From positions 44,130 through 64,129 of the forward strand of contig PS015122.1 in the NCBI GenBank assembly GCA_048213135.1: a DNA stretch of 20,000 nt. Direction: 5' to 3'. Under the pieces are notes generated by a model. The model searched no databases and was not told the origin of the DNA. It saw only the letters and a program-made list of their open reading frames with translations. This DNA comes from Reclinomonas americana ATCC 50394 (taxonomy: Eukaryota). Position 1 is the stretch's first letter, and every line of letters begins with the position of its first letter. Made by a program: the position numbers and the translations under genes. Below are positions 2 to 20,000 of the stretch, one piece after another.

Positions 2-2170
2 GTGCTGGAGCTCGTCGGGGAATGCATGGCTCTCAACAGACGGCACAATGAGGAGAATCTCTTTCTGCACAGTCCAGTGGAAGGAGTTATGTCGCCCCTC
101 GAAAGCATGGCTGCTGCTCGCACGCACAGTGCCTTATCCTCTGCCTTCTCCAGGTGATGGTAGCGCAAGTGCTGAGCGTGCTCACGCCGTGTACGACGCT
201 GGAGACGGCGGCCATGCTGCTCGAGCCGATTGGCAAGGCTCTGGGATTCGGGTTGCATCCGTCGGTGCGCGAGTTGTTTGAGAATTTTATCTGCCGCTTG
301 GTCCTCCGTTTCCCGACGCTGCTGCGCGACTCGCTGTGCAAGTAAGTCGGGAGGTCTTGTCGCCCGTTCTCTCAGCTTTGTGGTGGCTGACAGGCTCGCG
401 CGCGTCTCATGTGCAGGGAGTTGACCAACTTTGAACTGAAACCGATTCGTGCCGCCAGTCTGGTGGCCATCACCTGCATGTATCTGCTCGCAGTGGAACG
501 TGAAGAGTTCCTGGATGTGTTGAAAAAGGTTGCAACGTGCCGCTTGATGGCACGAAGAGGTGAAGCGCGATCTCACGCATGCATTCACAGGAGTTTTGGA
601 CGGTGTCGGCCTGGATCGCCACGCATTACCACTTGACGTGCAACTTGGTGCAGTACACGTGGGTCAAGGTTCACGAACGACTGCAGAGCGAAGGGTTGCG
701 TGCGCTCCTCCGTTCGCATCGTGCGTATTTTTCCTCGTGCTAACCGCGCTTCCTTCGGCAGTGGATCCCCCTTCACGCCCGAAATGAGTGCGTTCCTGGA
801 GAGCGTGGTAACATATGTGCGCACCAATCGAATTGCCCAAAAGAGCTTCCGTAAGGTGCGGGTTGAGTGGCATTGCTCTCCCCCCTGTAATGCACAGCCC
901 CTCAACACTAGTCGTTGTTGCAGAACATTCAATATGCGGCGCGCAATCAACAACGCGTCTTCCACTTGCCTGCTGTGCTGGCGGTGGAGACGTTGACAGA
1001 CCCGGAGCTCATCCGCGCATCTCTGAGTCGGGTACGATGTGCCGCCACTGTCTCTCTTCTGTTCACAACAGACAGTCGATCCTCACCTTATCGACGTGCA
1101 GAACATGATGCTCAGTGTGCGACTGGCGGGCTCCGAGTTCGCCAATCTGTTGGTGCACGACGAGCTGCTGCCCGGGTACCGTGAGCGCACGCTGCGCGAT
1201 CTGGTCTGCGAGCTGCCGGCCGTTGTTCTGGACGACGACAGTCGAGAAAGCCAGCCGCTGTCGCCACCGGCGGATGAGATGGAGTGGACACAAGGTGCAT
1301 AATGGTGCTGCTAGTGATCGAGGAGTTGTCCTTGTGGCAGTTGCTCACCTCCAGTGTAATGCGCCGTAGCGGCGCAACTGGTGGAGGCCAACTGGACGTG
1401 TCCCGAAGTCGAAAACTTTCAGCGCAAGGCTCGGACTGTCACAGACGAGACGCGCGAGTTCATTCTGGATCCAACGCGTGTGCGCAGTCACGGGTATGCT
1501 GAACCAACAAAGTGCTCGCTGTCCTCCAAATATCTTATCTGACACTGCGTGCACCAGACATCGGCACGAACTGATTCTGGTGGCCTCGCTCATTGACAAG
1601 GCCCCGAACCTCGGCGGCCTGTCGCGCACCTGCGAGATTTTCAATGTCGGCAAGCTGGTGGTCGCCGACAAGACCGTCATGCAGGTACGCGCGCCTCACC
1701 GACACCACCGCACTGCGCTCCCTTGCGACTCACCATGGCACAGGATACCATGTTTGTGCAACTGGCCATGACGGCCGAGCAGTGGCTGCCCATCGAAGAG
1801 GTACCAGTGGCCGACCTACCGGCCTACTTGCACCGCATGCAACACGACTGCGGCTACACACTGCTCGGCCTAGAACAAACGTCGCAGAGCGTCAGTCTCG
1901 AGCACTTTGAGTTCCCCGCGCGCTCGCTACTGCTCCTCGGCAGCGAGGGCGAAGGCATCCCACCCGAACTCCTCTCGCTGCTCGAGCGCACCATTGAGAT
2001 CCCGCAATTGGGCGTCGTGCGCTCCCTCAACGTCGTTGCGTGCACAGTGTTTTTGACGCAGCACTAACACCACTGATCATCATCCGCAGCACGTCAGCGG
2101 TGCCGTGGCCATGTGGGAATACACCAAACAGCGAGCTTTCGGCGGGCATGCAGTCCCACTTGCGCAATGA
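2..2170 (+). CDS. TARBP1: tRNA (guanosine-18-2'-O)-methyltransferase, TARBP1/Trm3 (SpoU family); 5'-partial, spliced
   Basis: Spliced C-terminus reads ELILVASLIDKAPNLGGLSRTCEIF...AEQWLPIEEV...LLGLEQT...LLLLGSEGEGIP...IEIPQLGVVRSLNV|HVSGAVAMWEYTKQ, the Trm3/TARBP1 SpoU motifs. Inferred GT-AG introns: 86-153, 342-416, 529-590, 695-761, 856-923, 1032-1071, 1295-1369, 1494-1557, 1685-1743, 2035-2089. Stop TGA at 2168-2170. Confidence 0.93.
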
Positions 2171-2214
2171 ATAGAAACTGTGTCCTCGTCCTCTGTCTTT
2201 GTTGTTCTCCATCG

Positions 2215-3846
2215 ATGGGCGACAGTGACTACGCTGCATGGCCGACCTCGCCCAGCGCGGCTGCGCGTGTGGGCATCAACTCACTGGCGGCCTCCTTCAC
2301 TGCCGACTCGCCTCGCCACGCCCCTCAACGCAGTCTGCCTGCGCAGTCGACTCCGCTCTACACCTCCAGTCGCTCACACTCTGCGGCCTCCTCCACGGGC
2401 TCCTCGCCTGCGCATCGTCCACAGTCGCACTCGGCACTGATGGTCTCCGGAGATCGCTTCATGTTGGACGAGGAGGAGGAGGAGGGAGATGAGGTCATGT
2501 TCCGCAGTGCAAAGGCCTATGATTCGTATGGTGAGAGAGAGAGAGAGAGAGAGAGAAGAGTGTGTGTGTGCGTGTGTGTGTGATGATTGTGATTGATGCA
2601 TTGCATGACTGACTGATGCCTTTGTTTGATTTCAGCTGCTTCCATGTCGCCTAGTGGGCGGTTGCGCTTGCTGCCCTCGACTATCTTTGCTGGTCTGTGT
2701 GTGTGTCTATGTGTGTGTCTGCGTGGATTCTGTTTCTGACTGTTGCACAGGCGAGGAGCAGGAGTTCGGAGGATTGGCTGTTGCGTTTTCTGCTGTCTGC
2801 GAGCTTGTGTTTGCTTCCTCACTGTGTGCGTGCAGAGACATGCGGAGGTGACGATGAGGCAACGGTGGCTTGGTGAGTGCGGATGTGATTGTCGTGACGA
2901 GCATCCTTTCACTGACTGCTTTGTCTCGTGCAGGAATGTGCTCATGTGGACGGCGCAGCTACGATGTGGTGGGCGTGGACAAGGCCATTCTGTTCCGGTT
3001 GCGCAACAAGAGCAACTGTTGTTGCAACCATGTGCGTCGTGTTGTTCTGTGATGAGCGATTTCCGAGCATTCATTGTCATCCTTTCATCTGCAGTGCGTG
3101 ACTTTTTGTTCCGAGACCGAGTTTGTGGCGCGGACGAGGGCTGTCGGTGGCACGCCGCACAGCGAGGACGCAGATGACTCAGATGATGAGAGCGCAGGCG
3201 GGCGGCGCACTCCGCGCACCGGAGACGGGGTGGTGTTCTCCATTGTGCAGCAGGCGTCGTGTTTGTCGCGGAGCATGTATGTTGCGTACACGTGTTGCAG
3301 TGGTGTGACAGGGAAGGAAGGTTGTAGTTGGTGATCGCGTTTCCGCCACACAGGTGTACGATAACGAGGACACGCCAATAGGGCGCACGTACCGGCCGAT
3401 CTTTTGCTGTACGCAGCGAATCGATGTGTTTATGCGAACACCGCTGGAGGGCGAACGGAAAGTGTTTGAGGTCGAGTCCATCCGCGCGTGCGTCGGCTGC
3501 AATGACGTTGCGTGGACCGGCCGTACGCGTCCGTCCTTTTTGTTGTCGCCCCGGCTCACCTCCCCCTCGCGCGCAGTATTCATTCATCATCCGCTCTGCG
3601 GAGTCTGGCGAGGAGTTGGCCGTGATCACACGACGCTGGCAAGGTCTCTGCAAGGCCGCGATGAATCTAGAAGGTGCGTTCTGCTCGCTATTGTTGTGTG
3701 GCTGTACAGGGGAGGGTCTGACTGTGTCTGCAGACTGGAGCATCTCGTTTCCGCAGCATGCTGGGGCCATTGAGCGCGCCTTGTTGGTCGCCGCCGTCGT
3801 GCACCTGGATGTTGTCTTGGGTCAGCAGAAGAGTGGGTCGTCGTAG
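2215..3846 (+). CDS. Phospholipid scramblase family protein with a Ser/Pro-rich N-terminus; spliced
   Basis: ATG at 2215. Spliced product contains LFRLRNKSNCCCNH|CVTFCS, VFSIVQQASCLSRSMY|VYDNEDTPIGRTYRPIFCCTQRIDV and CVGCND|YSFII...ELAVITRRWQGLCKAAMNLE|DWSISFPQHAGAIERALLVAAVVHLDVV, matching the scramblase C-terminal pattern (I.k.W.G...F.i.FP...kAll.ga...iD). Donors at 2531, 2693, 2780, 2873, 3032, 3281, 3507, 3674. Confidence 0.85.
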
Positions 3847-3912
3847 AGCATAAAAGTAATGACGGCGTGAAATGGTGAAACGTAAACAATCCTGGCAAAT
3901 ATTTTCATTCAT

Positions 3913-5634
3913 TCATTCATCATTCATTATACGTGTGGAGTCTGGTGGTCGCAGCAGTCGAGCGGTGAGCGGATTTGGCGTATCGTACGCCCCCGACTTG
4001 CTCAGCAGCACCACCGAATCGTGGTTTGTCGCGGTGGTATCCTGCAGCTCTGTTGCAGCAGCAAAGGATGTTGTGGAGGCGCGCCGCTTGTCCCACAACC
4101 ACTGGCCGACCCACACGCAAACACGGAACAGGAAGCCGCAACCACCAGCAATGCTGATGAGCGAGGCAATGTATGCGGTGGGCGATATGGCAACCTGGGC
4201 GACAATGAGCGAACGGACGACGAGGACACGAAAAGCTTCATCGTCCTCCGCCGCACCTCGCGGTACGTGAGAGCACCGGCTCCGTCGAGAACAAACGCAA
4301 TGATCGACACGTACATGTCGTCGGGGTTCAGCGCTCCACCAGTGGCCGCCATGCTGTAGCGCGTGTAGTTCTCGCTCGAGTTGAGGAACCTGGGTGGGGG
4401 GACACAGATGAGGTCGCCGACGGAGGGAGACATGCCGGGATTCTTGCACGCACTCGTACGTGACCGGGGCCATCACGATTTCGTTGTTACTGGTCTGTGG
4501 TCAGGCACGTCAGCACGTCGGCAAAACATCATGCCAGCAGGAACCAGCATACCGTGTTGACAATCACGCCAGTCACCGTGTCCATGGAAGTGGTGACTGC
4601 GCGAAGCGAGGGAGAGTGAGGGAGAGAGAGAGAGAAGAATGCGAGGAGGAAGGAGGAAGGAGCAGAGTGAAGGAGAACGCAGAGCGAGGTTTGTTGCGCG
4701 GGCAATTGAGACGCAACGCTGGCCAAACATGAGCTTCACCGACGAGGCGACCGTCGACTGCGCAAAACACCGCAGGTTACAATCTACGACGAAAGATCCC
4801 AGAACAGGGTCATCGAAGAGCGCACCGTGGTGTCGGGAGTAAAGACGACCTTGGAGATGTCGAGTCCCGGCTTCGGCGTCATCGTGTACACCATGAGCTG
4901 TGTGCTCCCCGGCGGCGCTGGCTTCTCCAGCATGAAGATCAGCGGATTGCCAATGAGCACCGAACCCGGCAGCGTCTGCAGCGATCCGAGATTGCAGTCA
5001 CAGTCGAGACAAGCTGCGAGGAACAGGAGGAAAAGTCGAACCTGCGCGACATTGACCATCCAGCAGTACGCTCCTTTCTGTTGATAGATAGACAGCAGTG
5101 GCGGCACGTTACCAGCAGACGGCCATCTGTGCGTGCATCAGCGGAGGAATGGGGTCCACTGAGAGAGAGAGACTGGTCATAAAAAAACGCAACACTGCCT
5201 CATCGCAGGGCGTGAGGGTGGCCGCCGAGGTGTCCAGGAAGCAGCGGAACACGGGAACGTACTGTGGCACATCGGCACGGTCCATAACAAGACACACAGA
5301 GAACATGGGAAGCTGACCAGTCACGCGCGAGGCTGTCACAGACAGGTCGGGATTCTGCGCGTGCATGTGATGAGATCAATCATCCCTAGTCAGTCACTCA
5401 CGCGCTCACTTGCTCACCTGGTGTGACTGCACAAGGTGCACCGTCTGCAGCACGCGCAGGCATGTGAGTGTGAGCAGGAGGGAGGGCAGAGAGAGAGAGA
5501 CGCACATAATACACAAAGAAGGCGATCCACACGAGTGCGGCCAGCAGCAGTGGCCAGCGAAGAGTCAGCCACTGTTGTGAGCGGTACCATGGAGTGGAGA
5601 CTGGAGGAGAGGAGGGAGTGGAGGTGCCCCACAT
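3913..5634 (-). CDS. Two-transmembrane protein with a large ectodomain, DEG/ENaC- or PAC(TMEM206)-like channel candidate, ~363 aa
   Basis: Ten exons join in one open frame with GT-AG introns: 5634-5506, 5444-5418, 5354-5194, 5126-5042, 4975-4826, 4757-4718, 4596-4553, 4494-4454, 4389-4257, 4194-3913. TM1 is WPLLLAALVWIAFFVYY; TM2 is YIASLISIAGGCGFLFRVCVWVG followed by KRR. The gene model is well supported; the family assignment is by motif resemblance only. Confidence 0.7.
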
Positions 5635-5832
5635 CTCCCTCCTGTCAAAGGAACGATCAAAGGAACCGACTGTTGACTGTCCAACACTCTGCCCTCTGAC
5701 GGACTTCGCGTGCTTTTGTTGTTGTTGTTTTACTATAGACCAAGCGAGGATATGCAACGTAGTGTTGTGCAGTACACCGGTACAGGTACGAGAAAACAGA
5801 AAGACGAAACAGAGAGAAGGAAGGAGGTTGCG

Positions 5833-8334
<2,502 letters not shown>

Positions 8335-8651
8335 TCTCTCACTAGCACGCGCACACTGTCGCGCTCTCACTGATGAAGTCCGTCTGAGAGTTAGTGTCAA
8401 GTCCGTGAGAAGGACGAGGGGATTTGCGAAGTTCTCTTTCTTTGCATTGCGCCCCCCTCTGCAGTCTATTCTTCATTATTGGCCTGTGAGATACTTGGTA
8501 GGTCAAGGTTGCCAATTGCAAACCCTTTCCATTGGCATCATTTCGCCTCGTGCACTTCACCATTTCCTGCAACCTTGGCAGAACGCACCTTTTTCGCCTT
8601 GCTACCCTTTGCCTTCAACCACGTGGGCCGAAAATTTTCCACTCTTGTTTA

Positions 8652-11600
8652 CTACACGGTGCCGTCGACATGCGCCGCGGGTGCAGCGGCCGTCTCTGTC
8701 GCTGCCACGGGCTCTACGGTGGTGGCGGCAAGTGCGGCGGCGACGGCGTCTGGAGGCGGGGCTTTGGTGTAGGCGCGCTCGTTCTCGGCCTCCCACTCGT
8801 CGCGTAGCGTGCGCAGGAACACGGCGGGCGTGTCGAGCTGTTGCAGGAAGAAGCCGCACGGTCGCTGCCAGTCGACACTGACGGTCACGGCCGCGCCGAG
8901 TTCGTGCGGTGGTAGGCAGAGCGGCGAGGTCACCACGTCTTGCCGCGGCATGTCGCCGTACACAATCAGTTGCGCAAAGCCGCGAATGGCCGCGACCTGC
9001 GAGACCATCGACGGTGAGTGATAACGAGGGGGGAAAAACTCAACTCGTGACACACTCACCGCCGTGAGGCACATGGGAAAGTTGATTTGCTCGCCATCCA
9101 TGACAATGAGGTGCAGCTTGCTGCGCGGGAATGAGCGCCATTCTTGCCAGCAACCCAACAGCGGCATGGTGACAAAGAAGACGCGTGCGGCGGAGGTGAC
9201 ATCGACGGCCTGCAGACGATAGGTAGAAGTGTGTGAGTGCGTGGCCTTCCATGCCAACTGGCATGTTCTCGTTCATCGCACACACCGACATGAGCGATTG
9301 CGTCGTCGACTCCACATGGCACCACTCCTGCTCGGCGACAAGCGAGTCGGGACGGGGTAGCCGCGAAATACCGTCGGGTGCGTCTGCAGTGTATCGCGAG
9401 ATGAGCGTCGTTATACAGTGCGCATCACGCTGCGAGAGACCACACACACACCTTCTCGGACAGTGACCGACGACAAGCCCGGCAGCAGCTGCAGGTATCG
9501 CGCTCGCGTAGCCAGCATCTGTGCATGACTCGCAAACAGCAGCATCACTTTCGAGTCGTGAAGCATGGTGGTCAGCAAGTCCACCATGCCCAGCTGGAGC
9601 AGCTTGCGACCTGGAAGGAGAGGGATAGCATGGTGAGAGCGAAGCTACAATCACGGTGAGATAGAGGAGTCAACACAATAGCGCACCACACTGGGGCAGG
9701 GCTCGGATCAACAGCACTCCGTGCACCAGTGACTTTTGCAGCGCCGTCTGCTGTCCAATGGTCCACTTTTCAATGCCCCACAGCGGACACCGTGCAGTCA
9801 GGTGGCTCTGCACCGCGTGGCGGCTGAACCGCTCGGTCAGATTCATGGTTTTGCCACTGGCCACACGCTTCATGCGCTGCGGCAGTGCCGGGTCGGTGAG
9901 GAACCTGGGGGAGAGAGAGAGGCGGCCGTGAGGAAACGCGACGAGGGTGGAGGCACGAGCATGCAACGCACCGGCGCAGACTGAGGCCGAGAACGCGCAG
10001 CAGCCAGTATCTGGCCTCGAGGGGAGCGGTCTCGAGGTGAGCAAGTTGGGCGGCGTACGACAGCTGTCGACAAGTACGTCGTGAGAAGAACCGCAATGCA
10101 AGAAGAGAGCGACAGGGAAAATTCCCGCACCGGAGGACGACCATCAATGAGACCATCGAGTGCGGTGACCAGTTGGCGCGCATCGACTTGCATCGGCTGC
10201 AGGTAGTTGAACGGGTCCTGCGCCACGACGGAGCGGATTCTCTCGTCGCCCATGTGCAACACGTGCTGCCGGCCAATGTCGATATTCTCAAAGGCCGCCA
10301 GCAGCGGCACCATGAAGCGCACGTCGCCGGCCGCGTAATCGAGCAGCACCTCCTTCATCGGGCGCACTTCCCACAAATTCCACTCCTTCCGCATCATGTC
10401 CTTGACACTGATCTGAGTGGAGGGAAGTTAGACGAAAGAGGTGCATGCTACTCCAGCAGGATGAGACGCGAAACTTTCTCGTCCACAATCGGCAAGTTGA
10501 AAAACTTGAGCACGTCATTGACACCGCAGCTGTTGCCCTTTTTGTGTGCGCCGACGCGTCGCTGGAGATCATTCATGGCCAGGAACGTGTCGAACACGCC
10601 GCGAGGAATGATGCCAAACTGGTGCGACAGTGCCGCCGTGTCGCAGCGCAGGTCGTGGATCACCTTGATGATATCCTCGCGCTCCAGAATCACTCGAAGC
10701 AACTGCATGTGAACGAGGGAAGGCGGTGAGGTGAGAGGGAGAAAGGGAGAGAGTGTGTGAGAGGGAAAGGGAGGGAGTGTGTGAGAGAGGGATGAAGAGG
10801 GAAAGGGAGAGAGAGGGCGACCATTATGTCAGCGAGCACAAAAAAAGAGAGGGAATGAGAGACAAGACACGCATTCGTGAAAGGAGAGAGAGAGAGGAGG
10901 AGTGGAGGAGGGAGGGAGCGAGAGACGCAACGCTATCCTCTCGCGCCAGCATTGTCGGCTCAACCACCACCTAACAAAGCAAAAATCAGGCGAGAGGGAA
11001 CGACAATAGCAGCATCACGGCAGTAGCAACAGTACGCACGTCAAACAGATACNNNNNNNNNNNNNNNNNNNNNNNNNNNNNNNNNNNNNNNNNNNNNNNN
11101 NNNNNNNNNNNNNNNNNNNNNNNNNNNNNNNNNNNNNNNNNNNNNNNNNNNNNNNNNNNNNNNNNNNNNNNNNNNNNNNNNNNNNNNNNNNNNNNNNNNN
11201 NNNNNNNNNNNNNNNNNNNNNNNNNNNNNNNNNNNNNNNNNNNNNNNNNNNNNNNNNNNNNNNNNNNNNNNNNNNNNNNNNNNNNNNNNNNNNNNNNNNN
11301 NNNNNNNNNNNNNNNNNNNNNNNNNNNNNNNNNNNNNNNNNNNNNNNNNNNNNNNNNNNNNNNNNNNNNNNNNNNNNNNNNNNNNNNNNNNNNNNNNNNN
11401 NNNNNNNNNNNNNNNNNNNNNNNNNNNNNNNNNNNNNNNNNNNNNNNNNNNNNNNNNNNNNNNNNNNNNNNNNNNNNNNNNNNNNNNNNNNNNNNNNNNN
11501 NNNNNNNNNNNNNNNNNNNNNNNNNNNNNNNNNNNNNNNNNNNNNNNNNNNNNNNNNNNNNNNNNNNNNNNNNNNNNNNNNNNNNNNNNNNNNNNNNNNN

Positions 11601-11692
11601 NNNNNNNNNNNNNNNNNNNNNNNNNNNNNNNNNNNNNNNNNNNNNNNNNNNNNNAGGAAGAGAGAGAACGAACGACGACGACGTAGTAGAGA

Positions 11693-11724
<32 letters not shown>

Positions 11725-12369
11725 CGAGAGACGCAACGCTATCCTCTCGCGCCAGCATTGTCGGCTCAACCACCACCTAACAAAGCAAAAATCAGGCGAG
11801 AGGGAACGACAATAGCAGCATCACGGCAGTAGCAACAGTACGCACGTCAAACAGATACACATTCTGATCGACATCCGACAGTTGCATCAGGCAGAGACGA
11901 CCTCTGGACATCGCGGTGAGCACACACACTACGAACGCTTGCACAAACGATTGAACTCACGTGTATCCGAGACTGACACCCTCACAATCCCAGCCAAGCA
12001 CAGTGCTCGAGTCCAGCAATCGTTGCGACACGGCCTGGCACTGCGCGTACGTCGTAATGTAGTGCGTCTCGGCACTGTCGTTTGGCACAAACGGGATTGG
12101 AGCTACGCATGAACGCAGGTGAGATGATCATCAACAACAGGAACAAACACGCAGTCGATCGCGTCCACGCACGAGGATCAGGCATGCGAATGGTTCCCGA
12201 CGACTCTGCGCACAGCATCATTCGTCAGTGGCGGAGAACGATGAAGAAGGAGAGAGAGAGGAGGAGGAGGAGGAGAAGGAGGAGGAGGAGGACAAGAAGA
12301 AGAAGGAGAATAAGAAGAACAAGAACAAGAACAAGAAGAAGAACAAGAAGAAGAAGAAGAAGAAGAAGA

Positions 12370-12411
<42 letters not shown>

Positions 12412-12450
12412 GAGGAATAAGAAGAAGAAGNNNNNNNNNNNNNNNNNNNN

Positions 12451-12487
<37 letters not shown>

Positions 12488-12811
12488 CTCCTCTCTCTCT
12501 CTCTCTCTCACTCTCCTCTCTCTCTTCTCTTCTCTCTCTCTTCTCTCTCTCTTCTCTCTCTCTCTTCTCTCTCTCTCTCTTCTCTCTCTCTTCTCTCACA
12601 CCTCATAAGGAAAGCCCGCATGTGCAATGTGCGCGGGAATGAGCCTATCGCCCGCAGTCGAGGAGGAGTCAGTGGCAAGTGACGAGCACGAGGCCTCATC
12701 ACTCACACCGTCCTCAGTCACCACATCATCCTCTGCACCTGCACACACACACACACACACGTGAGACACAGAGAGTGAGCAGAGAGGAGCACAGACAGCG
12801 CAACTGCTCAT
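8652..12811 (-). CDS. EXD1/Egalitarian-like DEDDy 3'-5' exonuclease with a C-terminal degenerate SF1B (Upf1-like) helicase-like domain; spliced, spans two assembly gaps
   Basis: Exonuclease motifs: ExoI VLGWDCEGVSLGYT|GRLCLMQLSD...VYLFD (~11845-11995); ExoII ILEREDIIKVIHDLRCDTAALSHQFGI...VFDT (10590-10700); ExoIII WEVRPMKEVLLDYAAGDV (10320-10375). The frame continues through GT-AG introns to stop TAG at 8652-8654. Proposed start ATGAGCA at 12811 with intron 12804-12739 gives MSSAEDDVVTED. One N-terminal junction (12601 to ~12205) is unresolved. Confidence 0.85.
10908..11858. repeat. 145-bp direct duplication (10908-11052 and 11714-11858) flanking a 602-N gap
   Basis: The stretch gagggagggagcgagagacgcaacgctatcc...gtcaaacagatac occurs on both sides of the gap. 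It contains the exon VVVEPTMLAREDS. Confidence 0.95.
11053..11654. other. Assembly gap (other gaps: 12431-12450, 14673-14695, 15485-15569)
   Basis: Runs of N. Confidence 0.99.
12243..12597. repeat. Compound intronic microsatellite: (GAG)n/(AAG)n/(GA)n purine tract, 20-N gap, then (CT)n pyrimidine tract
   Basis: Read directly. Lies within an inferred intron of the exonuclease gene. Confidence 0.95.
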
Positions 12812-12867
12812 GAGTAAGACAGATAAGAGAGGACATTCACTGTGTCCTCCGTCCTTCGTCGTTCTCA

Positions 12868-14189
12868 ATGAGCGACGAGCAGCCTCGCTGTCCACTCAAC
12901 TGGAGTGTACGCGAGGAGCCCACTGCCTCCTCCTCCACCGGCCTCGTCGGCGCAGTTGCGTATGCGCAATCTTTGTAAAAAAGAAGTTTGCGCGCGAAAA
13001 TCACACTCACAGAAAAACAGCGTCGCGGTGTCACTCTTCCTCCGATTGTCGTTGCTCCACAACTGCCTTCCTTTAGCGGCGGTGGCAGCAGTGATGCAGG
13101 CGCAGAGGCTTCTATGATTGTGGCCGCGGCCTTGGCTGCAGCAGCTGCGCGACAGACAGAGACGTCGTCGCCGGTGACTCCTCCCCACTATGCGCCTTCG
13201 CCACTGTCGCCGACGCGTTTGTGGGCCGGTCAGCAGGTGTATCAGTATGCTCCGGTGGTGGTGGCGAGTGAGGCGGAGGAGGCGGCGTATTATGAGTCGG
13301 CAATTGCGTTGGAGCTGAAGGCGTTTGCGGCGGATCTTGGAGCTGCTTCTTCTTCGACGACGACGACCACAACGACGACGACTACTGTGAGTGGGAAGCG
13401 TTTGCGAGGAGAGGACGAGCAGGAGGAGCAGGTGGCGGCGACGGTGGCGGTCAAGAGACCACCGAGAAAGCGCAGAAAGCTGCTGATCTCGTCGTCGGAC
13501 GATGGTGCCGATCGGAAGAAGAAGGCGAAACGAAAGACACTGGCATCTCCTTCCTCCTCGTCATCGTCATCGTCGTCGTCGTCATCGTCGTCATCATCTT
13601 CTGATGAAGGCGACGATAAGCCACTGTCGGCGCTGCTCATGGGAAAGAAGGGCAAGCAGGTCAATCATCGCTGTCCACCACCACAGTCGTTCCATCTGTG
13701 TGCTCACTGCCGACGTGCAGGCCAAGAGTGCTGCTGCTGCTCCTGCTCCTGTTCCACCACCACCACCACCACCTCCAGCTCCAGCTCCAGCTCCGGCTCC
13801 GGCGCAACCTGCGCCGCCCAAGATCCGCACCAGTGGCAAGAAGCTGAAGATTGAGCAGGCGGAGATCCCGCGCTTCAAGTACGACTCGACGGCGCCCATC
13901 TTCAGGTGCCCGTCCTCACCCTCGCCAGTGATGTCCCTTGCTCCTCACTCTCATGTCCATGCGCAGTGGTATTCGGCAAAAGATGTTGGGTGCACTGATC
14001 GAGCAAGCGGCGTGGTTGCCGCAATGCCTCAACGCGAAACACGTGATTCGGTACGCGATGCAGCTGGAGGAGAACGCGTACACTCGGAGTCGTGGAGTGG
14101 AGGTGGTGTACAAGGGATCGATAGCGGCCGATGTGATGCGCATCAAGAGGGCGGTGGCGAGCAAGGAGATGTTGACAGACGTGCGGTAA
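12868..14189 (+). CDS. Low-complexity, probably nuclear protein with a C-terminal REXO1/RECQL5-KIX-like helical domain; spliced
   Basis: Proposed ATG at 12868 with intron 12955-13020 (alternative ATG at 13114); further introns 13660-13720 and 13906-13966. Contains poly-T, poly-S and poly-P tracts, basic NLS-like KRPPRKRRK and RKKKAKRK, and C-terminus IPRFKYDSTAPIFSGIRQKMLGALIEQ...AMQLEENAYTRSRGVEVVYKGSIAADVMRIKR. Confidence 0.7.
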
Positions 14190-14362
14190 ACGACAAGAGT
14201 AGATTTGGCTTGGGGAAACGAAACAGCATTTACACACACACGCACTCACGCATGCACACGCGGAGGATCCGGTGGCTGGTGGGAGGGGAAAGAACAACGG
14301 GAAACACGCACGACCGGCACAATGAGGACGGCAGATATTTGGGGGTGTGAAGCGCAGGAGAC

Positions 14363-15569
14363 TCAGTTCTCTTGCTCGTCGGTGTCCGGCTCGGCGTCCT
14401 TCTCGCCACCGTCGTCGTCGGGCAGCACAAAGTCGTCCTCCACGGCGTACCTGCATTGGTGGTGAGTGTCACCACGCGGGTGTGCATCATCCTGCGGGAG
14501 GCGAGACGCAACAGAATCTTGGTGACTTCCTCGAGGAAAGGTGGCACGGCGTCGGGGGCGGCCTCCTGCGTTGTCTGGCACATAATCTCAATGTCGCGCA
14601 GCTTGCCAAAGTAGAAGTCACGCTCGCGCTCCAGGCCGTCCACAATCAGCTTCAGCTCGGCCAGTTGTTGCTNNNNNNNNNNNNNNNNNNNNNNNGGAAG
14701 GAGAAGGAGAGCAAAAGAGACGGTGCAGGGGAGGATGACAAGGAAGAGATTTGCATGGGGAGTTTTTGGAGACCTTCGATCTGCGTCAACGCCGGCCGCT
14801 TGACTGTTCGGTGGACACATGTGCACACACGCATACACACACACAATGCAGGGCACCGACGATGTATGAGCGGCTTTGCCGAGGAGCAGTACCCATGCTT
14901 TTTCCTCCTCTGAAACTCACTCTGGCCCAGTTCCCCGACGCACACACGCACACACAATCAGCACGCCCTCAAACCGTTGTAGCGGGCAATGGCCGAATCG
15001 CGCTCGTACTTGGCGTCGTACGGCGTCTGGTCGTAGTGCAACTCAAAATACCGCTTCATCCACTGCAGATGCGTGGTGAGCCGCGTGTGGAGCGAGAAAA
15101 CAATCATCAGCAACACTACAAACGCGCCTGCACAAACTCCAAGTTGTCGAGGTACTTGGCCTTGACGAGCTTGTCGACCTCAATGTTCTGCACGCGCGCA
15201 GTCAGTCGCCGTGTGCAGCGCAGCTGCGAGAATAATAATGAGTACCTTCTTGATGTTCAGCTTGCTGAAAGCCGCCTGCAGGATCTTGAAGTTGTTGACA
15301 TACTCGTGCTCCAGCTTGGCGTTGAAGTTGACCTTGTGCAGTGCGATCGAGTCTGCACACACAAGTTGTCAGTCAGCAGACAGCACAGAAATGCACAGGG
15401 TGCCCGAGGAGCGCAATACACACCAGGGAACAGAATGTGCATCAGCTGGCAGTGAGCCGCTCCTGTGAGAGAGAGGCAAGGCGANNNNNNNNNNNNNNNN
15501 NNNNNNNNNNNNNNNNNNNNNNNNNNNNNNNNNNNNNNNNNNNNNNNNNNNNNNNNNNNNNNNNNNNNN

Positions 15570-15617
<48 letters not shown>

Positions 15618-16284
15618 ATGTGTGTGTGTGCATGTGTGCGTGTGTGCAAGTGGGCAAGTGCGTGTGACTGTGTGTGACTGTGTGCATCACCCACCTGAGG
15701 CAAAGTCCTCGATCTTCTTCTGATCCTGCACAGAGGAAAGAAGAAGAGGAAGAAGAGTGAGTGGCGATCGCCATCGCACTCTCTCTCTCTCACTCTTCCG
15801 CTCACACACACACACACACAAACCATTTGAAGCAGCTCATTCGCCCACGCCAGGATCTCGTATCGACTGACAAAGTAGGCACTGCATGTGCGCACAAAGA
15901 CAAAGAGAGAGAGAGAGAATGAGCGCGCGAAATGCCATTGACAACAACAACAGTCACGTCATGTGTGTGTGAGATCAGTTGGCGCTCTTTTTGTATGCAA
16001 AGTGACTGCTCTTCTCTCTCTCTCTCTGCTTGTGTGCGCAAGTGTGTGCCTCAGTGAGTGTGTGACACAGCAGCAACACAATCGAACATCTCTCTCACTC
16101 AGTGTTTGCTGTGTCTCTTGTCTGTGAAGTCAACAAACCTGTCCATCATGCCTTACTCGTTCAACACACACGCACACACACACACACACACAACGAGACA
16201 ACACACACAAGTCAGTGTCTTCGTTTTTTTCCACTGCATTTTTTCATCGCACAGACCGATGGCTTCTCCTGCGCCTGCGTCCAT
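14363..16284 (-). CDS. EB1: Microtubule plus-end binding protein EB1 (MAPRE family); spliced, spans two gaps
   Basis: CH domain: [107 protein letters not shown] domain: [28 protein letters not shown]...KIL|YAVEDDF. Confidence 0.97.
15063..15127 (-). other. GC-AG intron (65 nt) in EB1
   Basis: The conserved DNLEFVQ|WMKRYF junction is restored only by CAG|gcgcgt...ctgcag|TGG. Confidence 0.88.
15570..15647. repeat. (GT)n microsatellite, degenerate at its 3' end, in an EB1 intron next to a gap
   Basis: Read directly. Confidence 0.93.
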
Positions 16285-16438
16285 GATTGCTCTCTCTTTC
16301 CTTTACACACACAGCACACACAGAGCACACACAAAGAGTCTTGAGTGCGTGGACAATCGGCGAGCACGCAACGTTCATATTCGCTTCCCGCCAAATCGCC
16401 ATTGTCCACACTTCCGATTTTCGAGAGAGAGAGAGAGA

Positions 16439-18684
16439 ATGAGCCAGCGTCGCTTTGATTTGACTGTGTTTGGTGCCACGGGTTACACTGGTTACTAGTC
16501 CATCGCAGCATGCTTCACTCTATGCATTTTTTCACTCACTTTTTTTGTCTTTTTTGTGTCTTTGTGTCTTTCTCTCTGTGTGTGTGTTGTTGTTGTCAGG
16601 CACGCTGATTGCCGAGTACCTCGCAAAGCAGCATTACGATGCGAGCAAGCTGTGTTTGGCCGGGCGGAGGTGAGTGCTTGCGTGAACGGAGTTGATTGAT
16701 CGGAGTTCGCATGCACGCACACACGCGTTTCTCTCCGTCTCCTCTCTGTCTGTGTCTCTGTCTGCATGTGCATGAGTGGCCGAGTGCGCCCTTGTGTCTG
16801 TGTGCATTGGAACTTGTACAAAGTGAAGATTCTCTCTCATGATCACTTTGCAGCAAGGAGAAGCTGGAGGCTCTCAAGAAGCACTTGGAGGTGCGTGCAT
16901 TCTCTCCTCCTCCCTGCCTGCCTGCCTCACACTCTCTGTATCTCACCGCGCACACTTGCCCGACATGCAGAGCATTGAGAAATCGTTCAATCGCGTCAAC
17001 CTGCTGGTGGCCAGTGTCGACAATGCCGACGAGGTCGAGGCCATGATCCGCCTCACCAAGGTCGTTGTCAACTGCGTTGGTCCCTTCTTCCGCTACTCCG
17101 AGGTCGTCGTCCGCAACTGTGTCGAGCACGGCACTGATTACGTCGATATCACGTTGCGTCACTCTCTCGAATACAGGTCATCTGCTCCTCACTCATGCGC
17201 GAGTGCAGTGGCGAGCCCAACTTCATTGCGCTGATGATGGACAAGTATCAGGAGCAGGCCGAGCGCAACAATGTGCTCATTATTTCTGCGTGCGGCTTCG
17301 ATTCGGTGCCCGCCGATGTCGGCGTGCAGTACGCGCGTCAGCAGTTCGGCATCGATCGTGTGCGCTCCGTCGAGGGCTATGTGTCGCTGAAGAACTTTGG
17401 GTTGTCGGCCGGCACGTGGAACACCATGCTGGACAGGTGGGGCAATGGGGGGAAGAGGGGAGGGGGAGGAAAGGGGCAAGGGGGATAGAGAAGGCGCAGA
17501 AGCAAGAATTGTGAGGGCATGTGTGTGTTTATGCGAGAGAGCGAAGCTGAGGAATATGGTAGTCTCTTGAATTCGTCCACCAGGTGATAGAAACAGATTT
17601 TGTCACTCTCTGTGGTGGTGCTTCATGAGACGGAGCAAGCGTCGTATTCGTGTCAGATGAGAAGAAGTGTGAGGAAAGCGTTGATGAGCACCGAGAGGGA
17701 GAAATTGAGTACTGCATTAGCGTGTCATGTTTGCGTTTATTGCGGGCACCGCCGTCGCCTTCCGCTCACCATCGCTTCTCCGACCCCACAGCATCGCCAA
17801 CGCCAAGCAGATGGCTGCCGTGCGTCGCAAGAGTGCTGGCCCGCCGCCGGCTTCGATCCCGAAGGTCTGCTCTTTCCACGTATTCCTTTTCCAAACTCTC
17901 TCTCTCTCTCTCACGTATTCTCGCGTCGCGCAGGAAAAGCGCGTGCTCAAGAAGCTGCCGCACAAGTGCAAGCAGATGGACAACACGTGGTGCATTCCAT
18001 TTGCCACCTCCGACCCGTTTGTGGTGCGCAAGACGATTGAGATCCAGGCGGACAAGTCGATGCCCTACTTCCAGTACGGCCACTACCTGTCGGTTGGCGG
18101 TCTGTTCCGACTGATCATCATGGCGCTGGGATTCGCGTTGGGTTGCGTCGATCAGCACGCGAGCAAGAACTCGGCCTGTGACTCACTTGTGTTCGTGCCA
18201 GTGTTCCTGCTTGCCAAGTTCAAGCTCACGCGCGACCTGCTCCGCAAGTACAAGTCGGAGGGCTCGGGGTGAGTTACCTGGAGGAAGGGTGCGTGTGTGC
18301 TCGACCTTTCTCAACTGTGTGATCTCGGCTCGTGCAGCTCGTCGGTCGAGAGCCGCCAGTCGAGTCGCTCGAGAATTCTGTTCGTCGCTCGCGACGACAA
18401 CGGGAAGCTCCTGGGACAGGCGGAGTTCACCGGCGCTGATCCCTATGATGTCACCGCTGTGACTGTCGTGCAGGCGGCGCGCGTGTTGCTGGAGAAGAGA
18501 GTTGCGTCTGCAACGCTACCTTTCTCTCTCCATCTCACTGTTCTTCTCACACGCTGCTGCTGCTGTTGCGCAGGAGCAACTGCCGATGCGTGGTGGTGTG
18601 GCCACCCCAGTGTCGGCACTCGGCGACGTGTACACGGACTACCTGATGCGCTGCCCGGAGATTGCCTTCCGCAAGGTGGAATGA
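16439..18684 (+). CDS. SCCPDH: Saccharopine dehydrogenase-like oxidoreductase (SCCPDH family); spliced
   Basis: Rossmann N-terminus MSQRRFDLTVFGATGYTG, then LAGRS|KEKL, VVVNCVGPFFRYSEVVVRNCVEHGTDYVDIT|GEP, IISACGFDSVPADVG, SAGTWNT, DPYDVTA and GGVATPVSALG. Stop TGA at 18682-18684. Confidence 0.93.
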
Positions 18685-18743
18685 GAGAACACCGTAGAGA
18701 GAGCATACAAGTTCACTCGCGCGTTCTTCGCCCGCCTTCCCCG

Positions 18744-20000
18744 TCACCTATCGCGTTCTGGTGGCGAGCCCAGTGAAAATGGCTCGAGTGCTGTTGTTGT
18801 TGTTGTTGTTGTGGCCACTGTGGGTGCGCCACGCCCAGCCGGTGGTGCGGCAGGTGGCGGACCGGGAGCGGCGGCCGCCGACTGTGAAGGCGTGGTCTGA
18901 ATGGCGGGGAGTACCGGCAAGCGGAAACCTCGTCCCCGACCGACCGCAGTGCTCACTGGTGTTCTGCGCAGTGACAACAACCGAGTCAAGAGTCGAGCAA
19001 AGTGGGTGCGCGGCGACACGTAGCTATACGAAACGACATGTTGGAAAGGGGCGTCGTCGACCCCGGTGGCCCCACGGAGCCCACGCCCGCCGCACTGCAA
19101 GACACATAGAAGTGAGGGAATAGAGGGCACACACACACACATCGAGGCGAGAGCGGATAACGGTACCTGGGCGACGGGCCAGGAGCGCCGCGACCTCGTC
19201 CTCGTCCCATCACGCCCGCCAGGAGCGATGACACGGCACTGCCTCCCGCACAGCACGTGTGAGCGATGATGCATACGACAGTTGCAACAACATGGAGTAA
19301 CGCACCTTGGTTGCTCAGCAGGTGGTCGATCGCGAGTCGGTCGTTCCTGATCGCGTACCACACCGTCGTCCTCGTCCGAATCGTCGTCGTACACGCTACG
19401 GCCTGTGGCGGCGGCAGTTGTGAGAAGAAGTGGTTCGCGCACCACTTTCATGGATCCACACACCTCGTCCCAAGGGCGCTGCTGCGGTGAGTCCACCCGG
19501 TGTGGTGGTGGTGGTTGTGGTGGTTGTGGTGGTCATCGGTGCACCACCAGCGGAGCCAGCGCGCAGCCACGATGGCGCCCCTGTGCCCGCTGGTGGTGGA
19601 GCAGCAGCGGTGGCCGGCGGTGGACTGGCCACTGAACCTGCACTTCCGCGACCTCGTCCTGCTTGTGAAATGAGAACAAAGAGAGCAGGAGAAGAAGGAG
19701 AGGGTTGGGAGGGGGTGGAGTGGAGTGGAGCGCACCTCGTCCACCCAGCGCGCCCAACACACTCGACATGAAGCGACCGCCGGCAGCAGGTGAACCAAAG
19801 TTCGTGCTGGCGCGAAGGCCGCCGACGGATGGAGGACTGTGGGGAGGGAGGGAGAGGAAGGGAAAGGGTGAGTATTCGTGGCAAAGACAACAAGGGTTGA
19901 CAGCAGCGAGGTACTAGCACGAGCAGATTGAGAGAGAACGGAAGTAGAGACAAGAAGCTCTCTCTCTCTCTCTCTCCCGCAACCACAACCCTGGATACAT
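18744..20000 (-). CDS. Hypothetical low-complexity protein rich in GRGRG, Pro and Thr; spliced, possibly 5'-partial
   Basis: Exons join in frame through GT-AG introns: ...GALGGRA|GRGRGSAGS...PLGR|GRSVYDDDSDEDDG...|SAVSSLLAGVMGRGRGRGAPGPSP|...TPVSTAVGRGRGFRLP...PPERDR*. No recognisable folded domain. The ATG at 20000 may or may not be the start. Confidence 0.6.

Follow-up and report, generated by a model that had tools for sequence, protein, structure and literature searches.

How a spliceosome recognizes introns that open with the heptamer GTTGCGT is the question raised by a 20,000-nucleotide stretch of the genome of Reclinomonas americana ATCC 50394 (NCBI GenBank assembly GCA_048213135.1, contig PS015122.1, positions 44,130 to 64,129 of the forward strand), referred to here as the window and numbered from its first letter. 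The 5' splice sites (donors) of U2-type introns usually carry a purine at +3 and a G at +5; in the window, T occupies +3 and C occupies +5 at all 16 modelled donors beginning with GTTGCG. The initial annotation of this DNA had described these donors as a second class, displaced by one base from the more common GTGCGT. At four sites, the donors are real and placed to the base, and, within genes, the motif is confined to intron starts. The best explanation, to which we assign a probability of about 0.55, is that GTTGCGT is a genuine and abundant U2-type donor at which the main donor consensus of the species is read one base out of register.

The window is eukaryotic and intron-dense, with a GC content of about 57% outside its several N gaps. 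Nine genes (A to I) were modelled by hand after reading of both strands, and a script verified the GT/AG ends and the absence of stops. The models contain 70 introns (median length, about 67 nt), which amounts to about eight per gene. This set excludes an unconserved linker of the EB1-like gene (14974-14680), two putative 5' untranslated region (5'UTR) introns of gene E (12804 and 12601) and a possible in-frame intron of gene C (5041-4976). An unsupervised gene finder, a dynamic program given only GT/AG ends with codon or 3-periodic Markov scores, skipped exons, returned gene models in fragments and was dropped.

GTTGCG is present, on the expected strand, at each of the 17 coordinates listed by the initial annotation, and 15 of these 17 sites extend to GTTGCGT, the exceptions being 12804 (GTTGCGC) and 19983 (GTTGCGG). 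The estimate of 17 such introns in roughly 70 is matched by the independent stop-free models, in which 16 of 70 introns (23%) begin with GTTGCG, 15 of them with GTTGCGT. The hexamer occurs 32 times in the window, against 17.2±3.8 times in dinucleotide-preserving shuffles, and the heptamer 18 times against an expected 4.0±2.0, a count reached in none of 200 shuffles. Fifteen of the 18 heptamers are modelled donors, one is a duplicate (10931) and two are intergenic (5827 on the + strand and 16372 on the - strand); none lies within an exon, in sense or antisense orientation. The observation itself, an excess of GTTGCGT placed at donor positions, is confirmed for this window. As to the intergenic copies, the one at 16366-16372 (-) lies about 90 nt upstream of the start codon of the EB1-like gene, on the strand of that gene, and could be the start of a 5'UTR intron, and the one at 5827-5833 (+) coincides in part with the stop-codon region of gene D, which is encoded on the other strand.

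Four GTTGCGT donors (2035, 17153, 18142 and 18501; the coordinates of all features are given in Table 1) are fixed to the base by homologues. For the TARBP1-like gene A, a search with one exon as the query yielded 120 TARBP1 relatives, and in all eight of those used in a tblastn comparison with the window, one residue ends at 2034 and the next starts at 2090. The exon upstream of this donor matches residues 65-160 of PDB 2ha8_A, ending with RSLNV. With a hidden Markov model (HMM) of the last 620 residues of 93 TARBP1 homologues of at least 1200 residues, the donor at 2035 scored 306.8, whereas four other GT donors scored 296.5, 296.1, 275.2 and 270.2 and a GC donor lying 3 nt further on scored 300.7; around 1494, a stretch that is unconserved, three alternatives scored as well or better. 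For the SCCPDH-like gene H, a HMMER search with one exon gave at least 150 relatives, 63 of which (370-460 residues) were aligned to the spliced protein, and the length of each homologue was compared with that of the model in a 12-residue window at each junction. The HMM of these 63 homologues gave 408.5 bits for the model and 369.1-396.6 bits for 11 alternatives (in-frame GT donors or read-through). At 17153, none of the 63 homologues differs in length from the model, and the scores are 393.6 for the rival GT donor and 400.8 for the GC site at +3. At 18142, the model is matched in length by 60 of the 63 homologues; read-through (390.0 bits) would add 20 residues, an insert absent from all of them. 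The donor at 18501 lies in a region of variable length, where 36 of the 63 homologues are of equal length, and is the best of seven in-frame donors (at most 396.6 bits for the others). A donor with T at +3 (T+3 donor) outside the GTTGCG class, GTTACTA at 16491, is also supported, with equal length in 59 of 63 homologues and scores of 390.7 and 378.3 for its alternatives. The initial annotation had named three junctions as pinned by conserved protein sequence; those of TARBP1 (SLNV/HVS) and SCCPDH (YVDIT/GE), both on the + strand, proved to be so; KIL/YA in the EB1-like gene is placed by frame logic.

Donors of the GTG class account for 35 of the 70, including one GC donor (15127), and read GTGCGT (11), GTGAGT (6), GTGTGT (4), GTGCGG (3), GTGCGC (3) or otherwise (8). 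The GTTGCG class is accompanied by GTA (9 of 70), GTC (5) and other GTT donors (5; GTTATGT at 86, GTTGCAA at 529, GTTGGCA at 9258, GTTTGTG at 15823 and GTTACTA at 16491), the base at +3 being G in 35, T in 21 (30%), A in 9 and C in 5. The 49 donors with a base other than T at +3 (non-T3 donors) have C at -3 in 22 cases, A at -2 in 27 and G at -1 in 38 on the exon side, and G at +3 in 35, C at +4 in 25, G at +5 in 42 and T at +6 in 29 on the intron side. Their consensus, (C)AG/GTGCGT (the slash marks the splice site), is the main donor of the species. The 21 T+3 donors keep GCGT one base further in, and more strictly than the non-T3 donors, with 18 cases each of G at +4 and C at +5, 17 of G at +6 and 16 of T at +7. 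At the same positions, non-T3 donors have G+6 in 6 of 49 and T+7 in 16 of 49 cases, and the coupling to T+3 gives p=3e-7 for G+6 (with the count entered conservatively as 16/21) and p=0.0014 for T+7 in Fisher tests. G+6 and T+7 are, then, enriched among the T+3 donors in the 70 introns of this window, and this coupling backs the original proposal that GTTGCGT is (C)AG/GTGCGT displaced by one base. The lack of an AG consensus at the preceding exon ends was also correctly described: G is found at -1 in 3 of 16 GTTGCG donors versus 38 of 49 non-T3 donors (Fisher p=4e-5), and the exon side of the GTTGCG class seems to be simply unconstrained. T is found at +9 in 9 of 16 GTTGCG donors; among the 49 non-T3 donors, it occupies +9 in 14 (p=0.07) and +8 in 12 (p=0.03). 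If the register is shifted, the first base of U1 would lie opposite +9; the sample is too small for a judgement.

The suggestion that these introns might form a distinct class in other respects found no support, as they do not differ in length, acceptor or branch-like motif. Median length is 67 nt for the GTTGCG introns and 67.5 nt for the others (Mann-Whitney p=0.79), the acceptor is CAG in all 16, and 15 of 16 (all but 3281), like 47 of the 54 others, have a CTNAY motif 10-45 nt upstream of the acceptor. Intron phase is alike in both donor classes, and GTTGCG introns stand beside ordinary donors in eight of the nine genes. GT opens 69 of the 70 introns and GC the remaining one, and YAG closes all of them. 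Introns of the U12 type have the donor /RTATCCTT and the branch site TCCTTAAC; recognition by the minor spliceosome was considered and rejected, none of the 70 donors reading RTATCC. By their ends, their branch motif and, at the four pinned sites, the continuity of the protein across them, the GTTGCGT introns are ordinary GT-AG (U2-type) introns.

For these donors, we infer the register of pairing, the U1 sequence and the use of a single spliceosome as follows. The first G of the intron would sit where the last G of the exon usually pairs with U1, the U at +2 would face C8 of U1 as a single mismatch, and UGCGU would pair as positions +2 to +6 normally do; a U bulged at +2 or +3 would be a nearly equivalent alternative. 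Cleavage would stay before the first GU, presumably fixed at a later stage by U6, U5 and Prp8, and the same spliceosome would serve both donor classes. The 5' end of U1 would have a G opposite intron position +4, and read ACGUAC or ACGCAC in place of ACUUAC. The loss of G at -1 fits this pairing, because G+1 of the intron would stand in for the G of the exon, and the stricter GCGT of the T+3 donors is to be expected, because a costly register would need all the remaining pairs. Under a mere U bulge, G would be expected at -1 in about 78% of cases, against the 3 of 16 observed (binomial p=1e-6).

Each donor, from -3 to +9, was folded as a duplex with hypothetical U1 5' ends, with pseudouridine treated as U and no proteins. 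The standard U1 end gives the GTTGCG donors a median energy of -1.1 kcal/mol, no register being stable, and the other class a median of -5.8 kcal/mol; with a U1 carrying G at position 5 (G5 U1; ACGUAC or ACGCAC), the GTTGCG donors would reach -5.5 to -7.5 kcal/mol. With this hypothetical U1, the +1 register is the predicted minimum-energy form for most GTTGCG donors, and in the minimum-energy duplex with GUC/GUUGCGUGC, which has the +1 shift, G+1 pairs with C9, U+2 is unpaired and +3 to +8 are paired. In a discrimination test, 16 U1 ends varied at positions 5 and 6 were compared for their ability to tell the 69 GT donors apart from decoys, namely 1191 unused GT sites on the sense strand. ACGUAC separated them best, with an area under the curve (AUC) of 0.848 overall, 0.894 for non-T3 donors and 0.790 for the GTTGCG class; the standard U1 end gave 0.863 for non-T3 donors and 0.355 for the GTTGCG class. 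Because the standard U1 gives the GTTGCG donors neither a stable register nor separation from decoys, G at position 5 of U1 is predicted for both classes. We put at somewhat short of even odds, as a tentative proposition, that a non-canonical U1 register is a routine, genome-wide mode of recognition in this species, in which a fifth to a quarter of introns would open as N/GUUGCGU and be read by a changed U1 (G at position 5, ACGYAC). If so, the contact of U6 with positions +4 to +6 would have to tolerate an extra nucleotide near the catalytic centre.

Several points weigh against a shifted register read by a changed U1. Such a register leads to the expectation at the exon end of the A that is usual at -2 (27 of 49, 55%), but A is found at -1 in only 4 of 16 GTTGCG donors (p=0.015), and the exon side therefore fits neither register well. 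The initial annotation had extended the shifted pattern to GTTATGT and similar donors, which is partly correct: GTTACTA, GTTTGTG, GTTGGCA, GTTGCAA and GTTATGT fit a one-base shift only in part. The energies come from a model that takes pseudouridine as U and ignores proteins. Thecamonas and Micromonas are described, in the available part of a preprint, as keeping a standard U1 despite C at +4 (bioRxiv 10.1101/2022.06.08.495308), so that C at +4 does not by itself require G at position 5 of U1. In addition, 12 of the 16 GTTGCG donors rest on the frame logic of our own models, and the sample is a single 20-kb window, the junctions of which were all deduced from sequence.

The same donors could be read in normal register by a dedicated variant U1, perhaps with a variant U6 too, with a 5' end complementary to GUUGCGU (ACGCAAC, for example), which would mean two parallel U2-type donor codes. 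A near-invariant heptamer and an exon side without pairing are what such an RNA would produce, and there are precedents in the available parts of the sources, in the form of co-evolved U1 ends in Entamoeba and Mastigamoeba (bioRxiv 10.1101/2022.06.08.495308) and expressed U1 variants in humans. This remains unlikely in our view, given that a one-base insertion in the 5' end of U1 was not found in the available portions of the literature compared, that GTTGCG and other donors neighbour one another in the same genes and their introns agree in length, branch motif and acceptor, and that in the model one G5 U1 is enough to tell donors of both classes from decoys. About as improbable is recognition independent of U1 pairing at +3 to +7, with +3 free and GCGU read at a variable distance by U6 or a protein (U1C, Luc7). 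The occurrence of all four bases at +3, the absence of a stable register with the standard U1 and the existence of T+3 donors without GCGT, such as the homologue-pinned GTTACTA at 16491, would be accommodated in this way, but the exact one-base shift of GCGT in 15 of the 21 T+3 donors and the confinement of the -1 G loss to the GTTGCG class would be left unexplained.

There would be no T+3 class at all if the true donor were a GC-AG site 3 nt downstream (GTT/GCGT), with GTT as a coded valine or part of a codon. GCGCGT is indeed used at 15127 in the EB1-like gene, and frame logic cannot discriminate, because a 3-nt shift stays in frame at every site. The homologues can: the extra residue at 2035 contradicts all eight of them and a GC donor lowers the scores of the four pinned sites by 5.7 to 7.7 bits, which, together with the lack of GC or GT at +4 in GTTACTA (16491) and GTTATGT (86), makes this alternative very improbable. 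An identical seven-base start in many introns might also reflect copies of a mobile intron (an introner-like element) rather than a splice signal. On local alignment, however, intron bodies score no higher within the class (median 7) than between classes (median 8; Mann-Whitney p=0.26), the best-scoring pair is CT-rich and of low complexity, positions +8 to +10 of the GTTGCG donors are unconserved and no likeness extends past the first seven bases. As their bodies lack similarity, the introns are not copies of this kind, and we leave the idea only a marginal chance. Chance, or an error of the hand-made gene models, is given no more credit than mobile copies, despite the 12 sites placed by frame fit and the fragmentary output of the gene finder, to which no donor information was given: the excess of the heptamer is independent of any model, four sites are fixed by homologues, and the heptamer is absent from exons and from the antisense strand of genes.

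Table 1. Introns with T at +3 discussed in the text, and the genes modelled in the window (slashes mark exon junctions).
Feature	Coordinates	Strand	Gene or product	Length	Junction, evidence or remark
GTTGCGT intron	2035..2089	+	TARBP1-like gene A	55 nt	RSLNV/HVSGA
GTTGCGT intron	17153..17208	+	SCCPDH-like gene H	56 nt	YVDIT/GEP
GTTGCGT intron	18142..18201	+	SCCPDH-like gene H	60 nt	in frame, no stop
GTTGCGT intron	18501..18573	+	SCCPDH-like gene H	73 nt	LLEKR/EQLP
T+3 donor GTTACTA	16491..16599	+	SCCPDH-like gene H	109 nt	GATGYTG/TL
GTTGCGT intron	695..761	+	TARBP1-like gene A	67 nt	required for stop-free chain to conserved C-terminus
GTTGCGT intron	2780..2835	+	scramblase-like gene B	56 nt	frame fit; rival same-acceptor donor GTCTGCG at +15
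GTTGCGT intron	3281..3353	+	scramblase-like gene B	73 nt	frame fit; alternative GTGACAG at +24
GTTGCGT intron	3507..3576	+	scramblase-like gene B	70 nt	flanking exons in different frames
GTTGCGT intron	12955..13020	+	gene F, near 5' end	66 nt	frame fit, unconserved N-terminus; unpinned
GTTGCGT intron	4597..4717	-	gene C	121 nt	one of two in-frame GT-AG solutions (other GTTCTCC at +39)
GTTGCGT intron	5127..5193	-	gene C	67 nt	ambiguous
GTTGCGT intron	6828..6889	-	GT1 glycosyltransferase gene D	62 nt	only in-frame GT donor for its acceptor
GTTGCGT intron	7650..8109	-	gene D	460 nt	long CA repeat inside; unpinned
GTTGCGT intron	10703..10931	-	exonuclease gene E		stop-free model
GTTGCGT intron	14451..14512	-	EB1-like gene G	62 nt	KIL/YA; splicing shifts frame into acidic tail
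GTTGCGG intron start	19837..19983	-	gene I		17 bases of upstream exon in window; unpinned
GTTGCGC site	12739..12804	-	upstream of gene E		unverified as coding junction
T+3 donor GTTATGT	86..153	+			frame fit; HMM non-discriminating (306.8 vs 306.5)
T+3 donor GTTGCAA	529..590	+			frame fit; HMM slightly best (306.8 vs 299.4 and 292.4)
T+3 donor GTTGGCA	9210..9258	-	gene E	49 nt	frame fit
T+3 donor GTTTGTG	15726..15823	-	EB1-like gene		frame fit; exact base uncertain (in-frame GTGTGTG repeats just downstream)
Gene A			TARBP1-like SpoU methylase		PDB 2ha8, E=1.3e-23
Gene B			scramblase-like		weak Pfam Scramblase match, E=0.07
Gene C			membrane protein
Gene D			GT1 glycosyltransferase		Glyco_transf_28 and EryCIII-like_C matches
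Gene E			3'-5' exonuclease protein		DNA_pol_A_exo1 profile match
Gene F			unnamed
Gene G			EB1-like		EB1 homology domain, 3tq7_B, E=1.6e-12
Gene H			SCCPDH-like		homologue searches and Pfam
Gene I			RG-rich protein		cut by window end

At the sites placed by frame fit, enumeration usually found other in-frame GT-AG pairs, and the donors at 6889 and 4717 are nearly forced. For 695, the GTGCGT at 721 would give a stop, and the HMM is weak (306.8 versus 303.9, 301.8 and 299.4). In gene B, which presumably resembles human scramblase in its layout, 3507 is the most downstream in-frame GT for its acceptor, and the weak Scramblase match comes from the exon that follows this intron. The donor at 5193 in gene C has a rival at 5120 (GTCTGCT, 145 nt), and both are stop-free. 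In a coding-potential model for which the other eight genes served as the training set (medians of 0.72 bits per codon for exons and -0.45 for introns), the exon at 5193 scored +0.47 bits per codon and the extra exon part required by 5120 scored -0.2, and 5193 is favoured. The same gene contains an in-frame, stop-free segment of 66 nt (4976-5041, -) running from CAG/GTTCGAC to CTGCAG, with an intron-like coding potential of -0.15 bits per codon, which is possibly a further T+3 intron. The donor at 8109 was placed by frame fit after a low-complexity acidic first exon, and nine other donors are possible for the same acceptor; five others fit in the case of 19983. The site at 12804 is preceded by only seven bases (ATGAGCA) and the frame that follows does not join the exonuclease open reading frame (ATG at 12185), so it is at best a 5'UTR intron.

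In the exonuclease gene E, the exon downstream of the 10931 intron matches positions 68-114 of the DNA_pol_A_exo1 profile from its second residue. The exon VVVEPTMLAREDS, its GTTGCGT donor and the end of the preceding intron are present twice (10932-11053 and 11738-11859), around an N gap (11054-11654), and the copies at 10931 and 11737 diverge only in a CT-rich repeat after the donor. This looks like a scaffolding or haplotype duplication; because of the duplication across the gap, the two sites were counted as one intron. The same gene has a very short modelled intron of 44 nt (10408-10451, -), GTAGCATG...CTAAC...CAG, which keeps the conserved LLD/VKDMMRKEW frame. In the EB1-like gene G, the EB1 homology domain is encoded by the exon upstream of 14512, and the sequence ILYA..D.FV.PD is one that we take to be like that of human EB1; the 28-residue tail exon alone gave no match in PDB. 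The GC-AG intron of the EB1-like gene (15063-15127, -) starts with GCGCGT, which differs from the species consensus by a C at +2. The exon upstream aligns with human EB1 to NFEFVQ (1pa7_A 91-109), up to the base before GC, and downstream GT sites give stops; the exon that follows, searched alone against PDB, had no match. Microsatellites are common inside the introns of the window, and long (TG/CA)n, (GA/CT)n or (GAA)n arrays in introns lie beside N gaps at 7800-7950, 12220-12600 and 15570-15640, where they probably caused the gaps in the assembly.

The closest TARBP1 relatives of gene A (from green algae and others) reach 58% identity with it, and the closest SCCPDH relative of gene H among the matches listed is 40% identical. 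Two exon queries found no match in the protein collection in word searches, and an Rfam scan of the 20-kb window at gathering thresholds gave no matches. Pfam searches with single exons were mostly blank, and the scramblase, glycosyltransferase and exonuclease junctions are therefore not pinned by profile coordinates.

No description of a GTTGCGT/GUUGCGU donor class was found in full-text searches of openly available papers, either among the 25 best-ranked of 10,124 or among 16 listed on GUGCGU splice sites. A non-canonical U1 register as such is already known; what appears to be new is its use at a major class of donors that share a near-invariant heptamer and belong to an intron-dense genome. 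If the shifted register is correct, this would be the first natural system in which register-shifted recognition of 5' splice sites is a major class rather than a rare exception. Splice-site models and gene finders that assume one register, with a purine at +3 and G at +5, would mis-call about every fourth or fifth intron here. If the frequency holds genome-wide, the species would provide a test bed for the co-evolution of splice signals and the 5' end of U1 in intron-rich genomes, direct evidence for which has, according to the available part of the preprint, come mainly from intron-poor lineages such as Entamoeba (bioRxiv 10.1101/2022.06.08.495308). The analysis also delivers a checkable prediction, in the form of the sequence of the U1 5' end.

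Human 5' splice sites at which U1 pairs one position over, with cleavage kept at GU, were reportedly described by Roca and Krainer in 2009. According to the available parts of the sources, shifted and +2/+3 bulged registers have been proven in human cells (PMC4856993; review PMC9311317). Counted together, the validated non-canonical registers account for about 1.5-2.1% of 5' splice sites in humans (PMC4856993), and for the +2/+3 bulge, 68 sites were predicted, 54 of which remained after curation, among 201,541 (PMC4856993, from Roca et al. 2012). The human shifted-register sites are like those of the window in that the donor is the species consensus moved by one base, with U1 proposed to pair one position over, but they are rare as far as these sources go, whereas one motif opens 16 of 70 introns here. 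The human bulge at +2/+3 is similar in that GU-U-GCGU would become the consensus once a single extra U is taken as bulged; it would keep the pairing of the -1 G, which is present in 3 of 16 cases in the window, and, by the same sources, the frequency here is orders of magnitude higher. The consensus itself is GUAAGU in humans and GUGCGU in the window, where the shifted register is a proposed one.

The donors of Mamiellales and Thecamonas are said to have been treated also by Irimia and Roy in 2008. The available part of the preprint gives GYGCGY donors for Mamiellales (Micromonas, Ostreococcus) and donors with C at +4 for Thecamonas, with a standard U1 (bioRxiv 10.1101/2022.06.08.495308). The strong G/GTGCGT-like consensus is shared with the window; the Mamiellales differ in having lost most of their introns, and the portion of the text available describes a standard U1 and no one-base-shifted second class in either group. 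Entamoeba has GUUUGU donors with a co-evolved U1 5' end, 5'-AACAAAC-3' (Roy and Bowser, bioRxiv 10.1101/2022.06.08.495308). On this partial account, U at +3 is normal in Entamoeba and an atypical donor is matched by a changed U1, as proposed here, but the organism is intron-poor and has one near-universal donor in normal register, unlike the intron-dense window with its two donor forms one base apart. Mastigamoeba balamuthi, for which the same text gives a candidate U1 of ACGUAC, donors that prefer GUGCGC and 2.5 introns per gene (bioRxiv 10.1101/2022.06.08.495308), differs from the window in its C rather than T (29 of 49) at +6 and in its 2.5 rather than about eight introns per gene, and no GUUGCGU class is mentioned in the part available. 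It resembles the window in having a main donor of GUGCG- with C at +4, and its candidate ACGUAC is the hypothetical U1 end that best separates the donors of the window from decoys.

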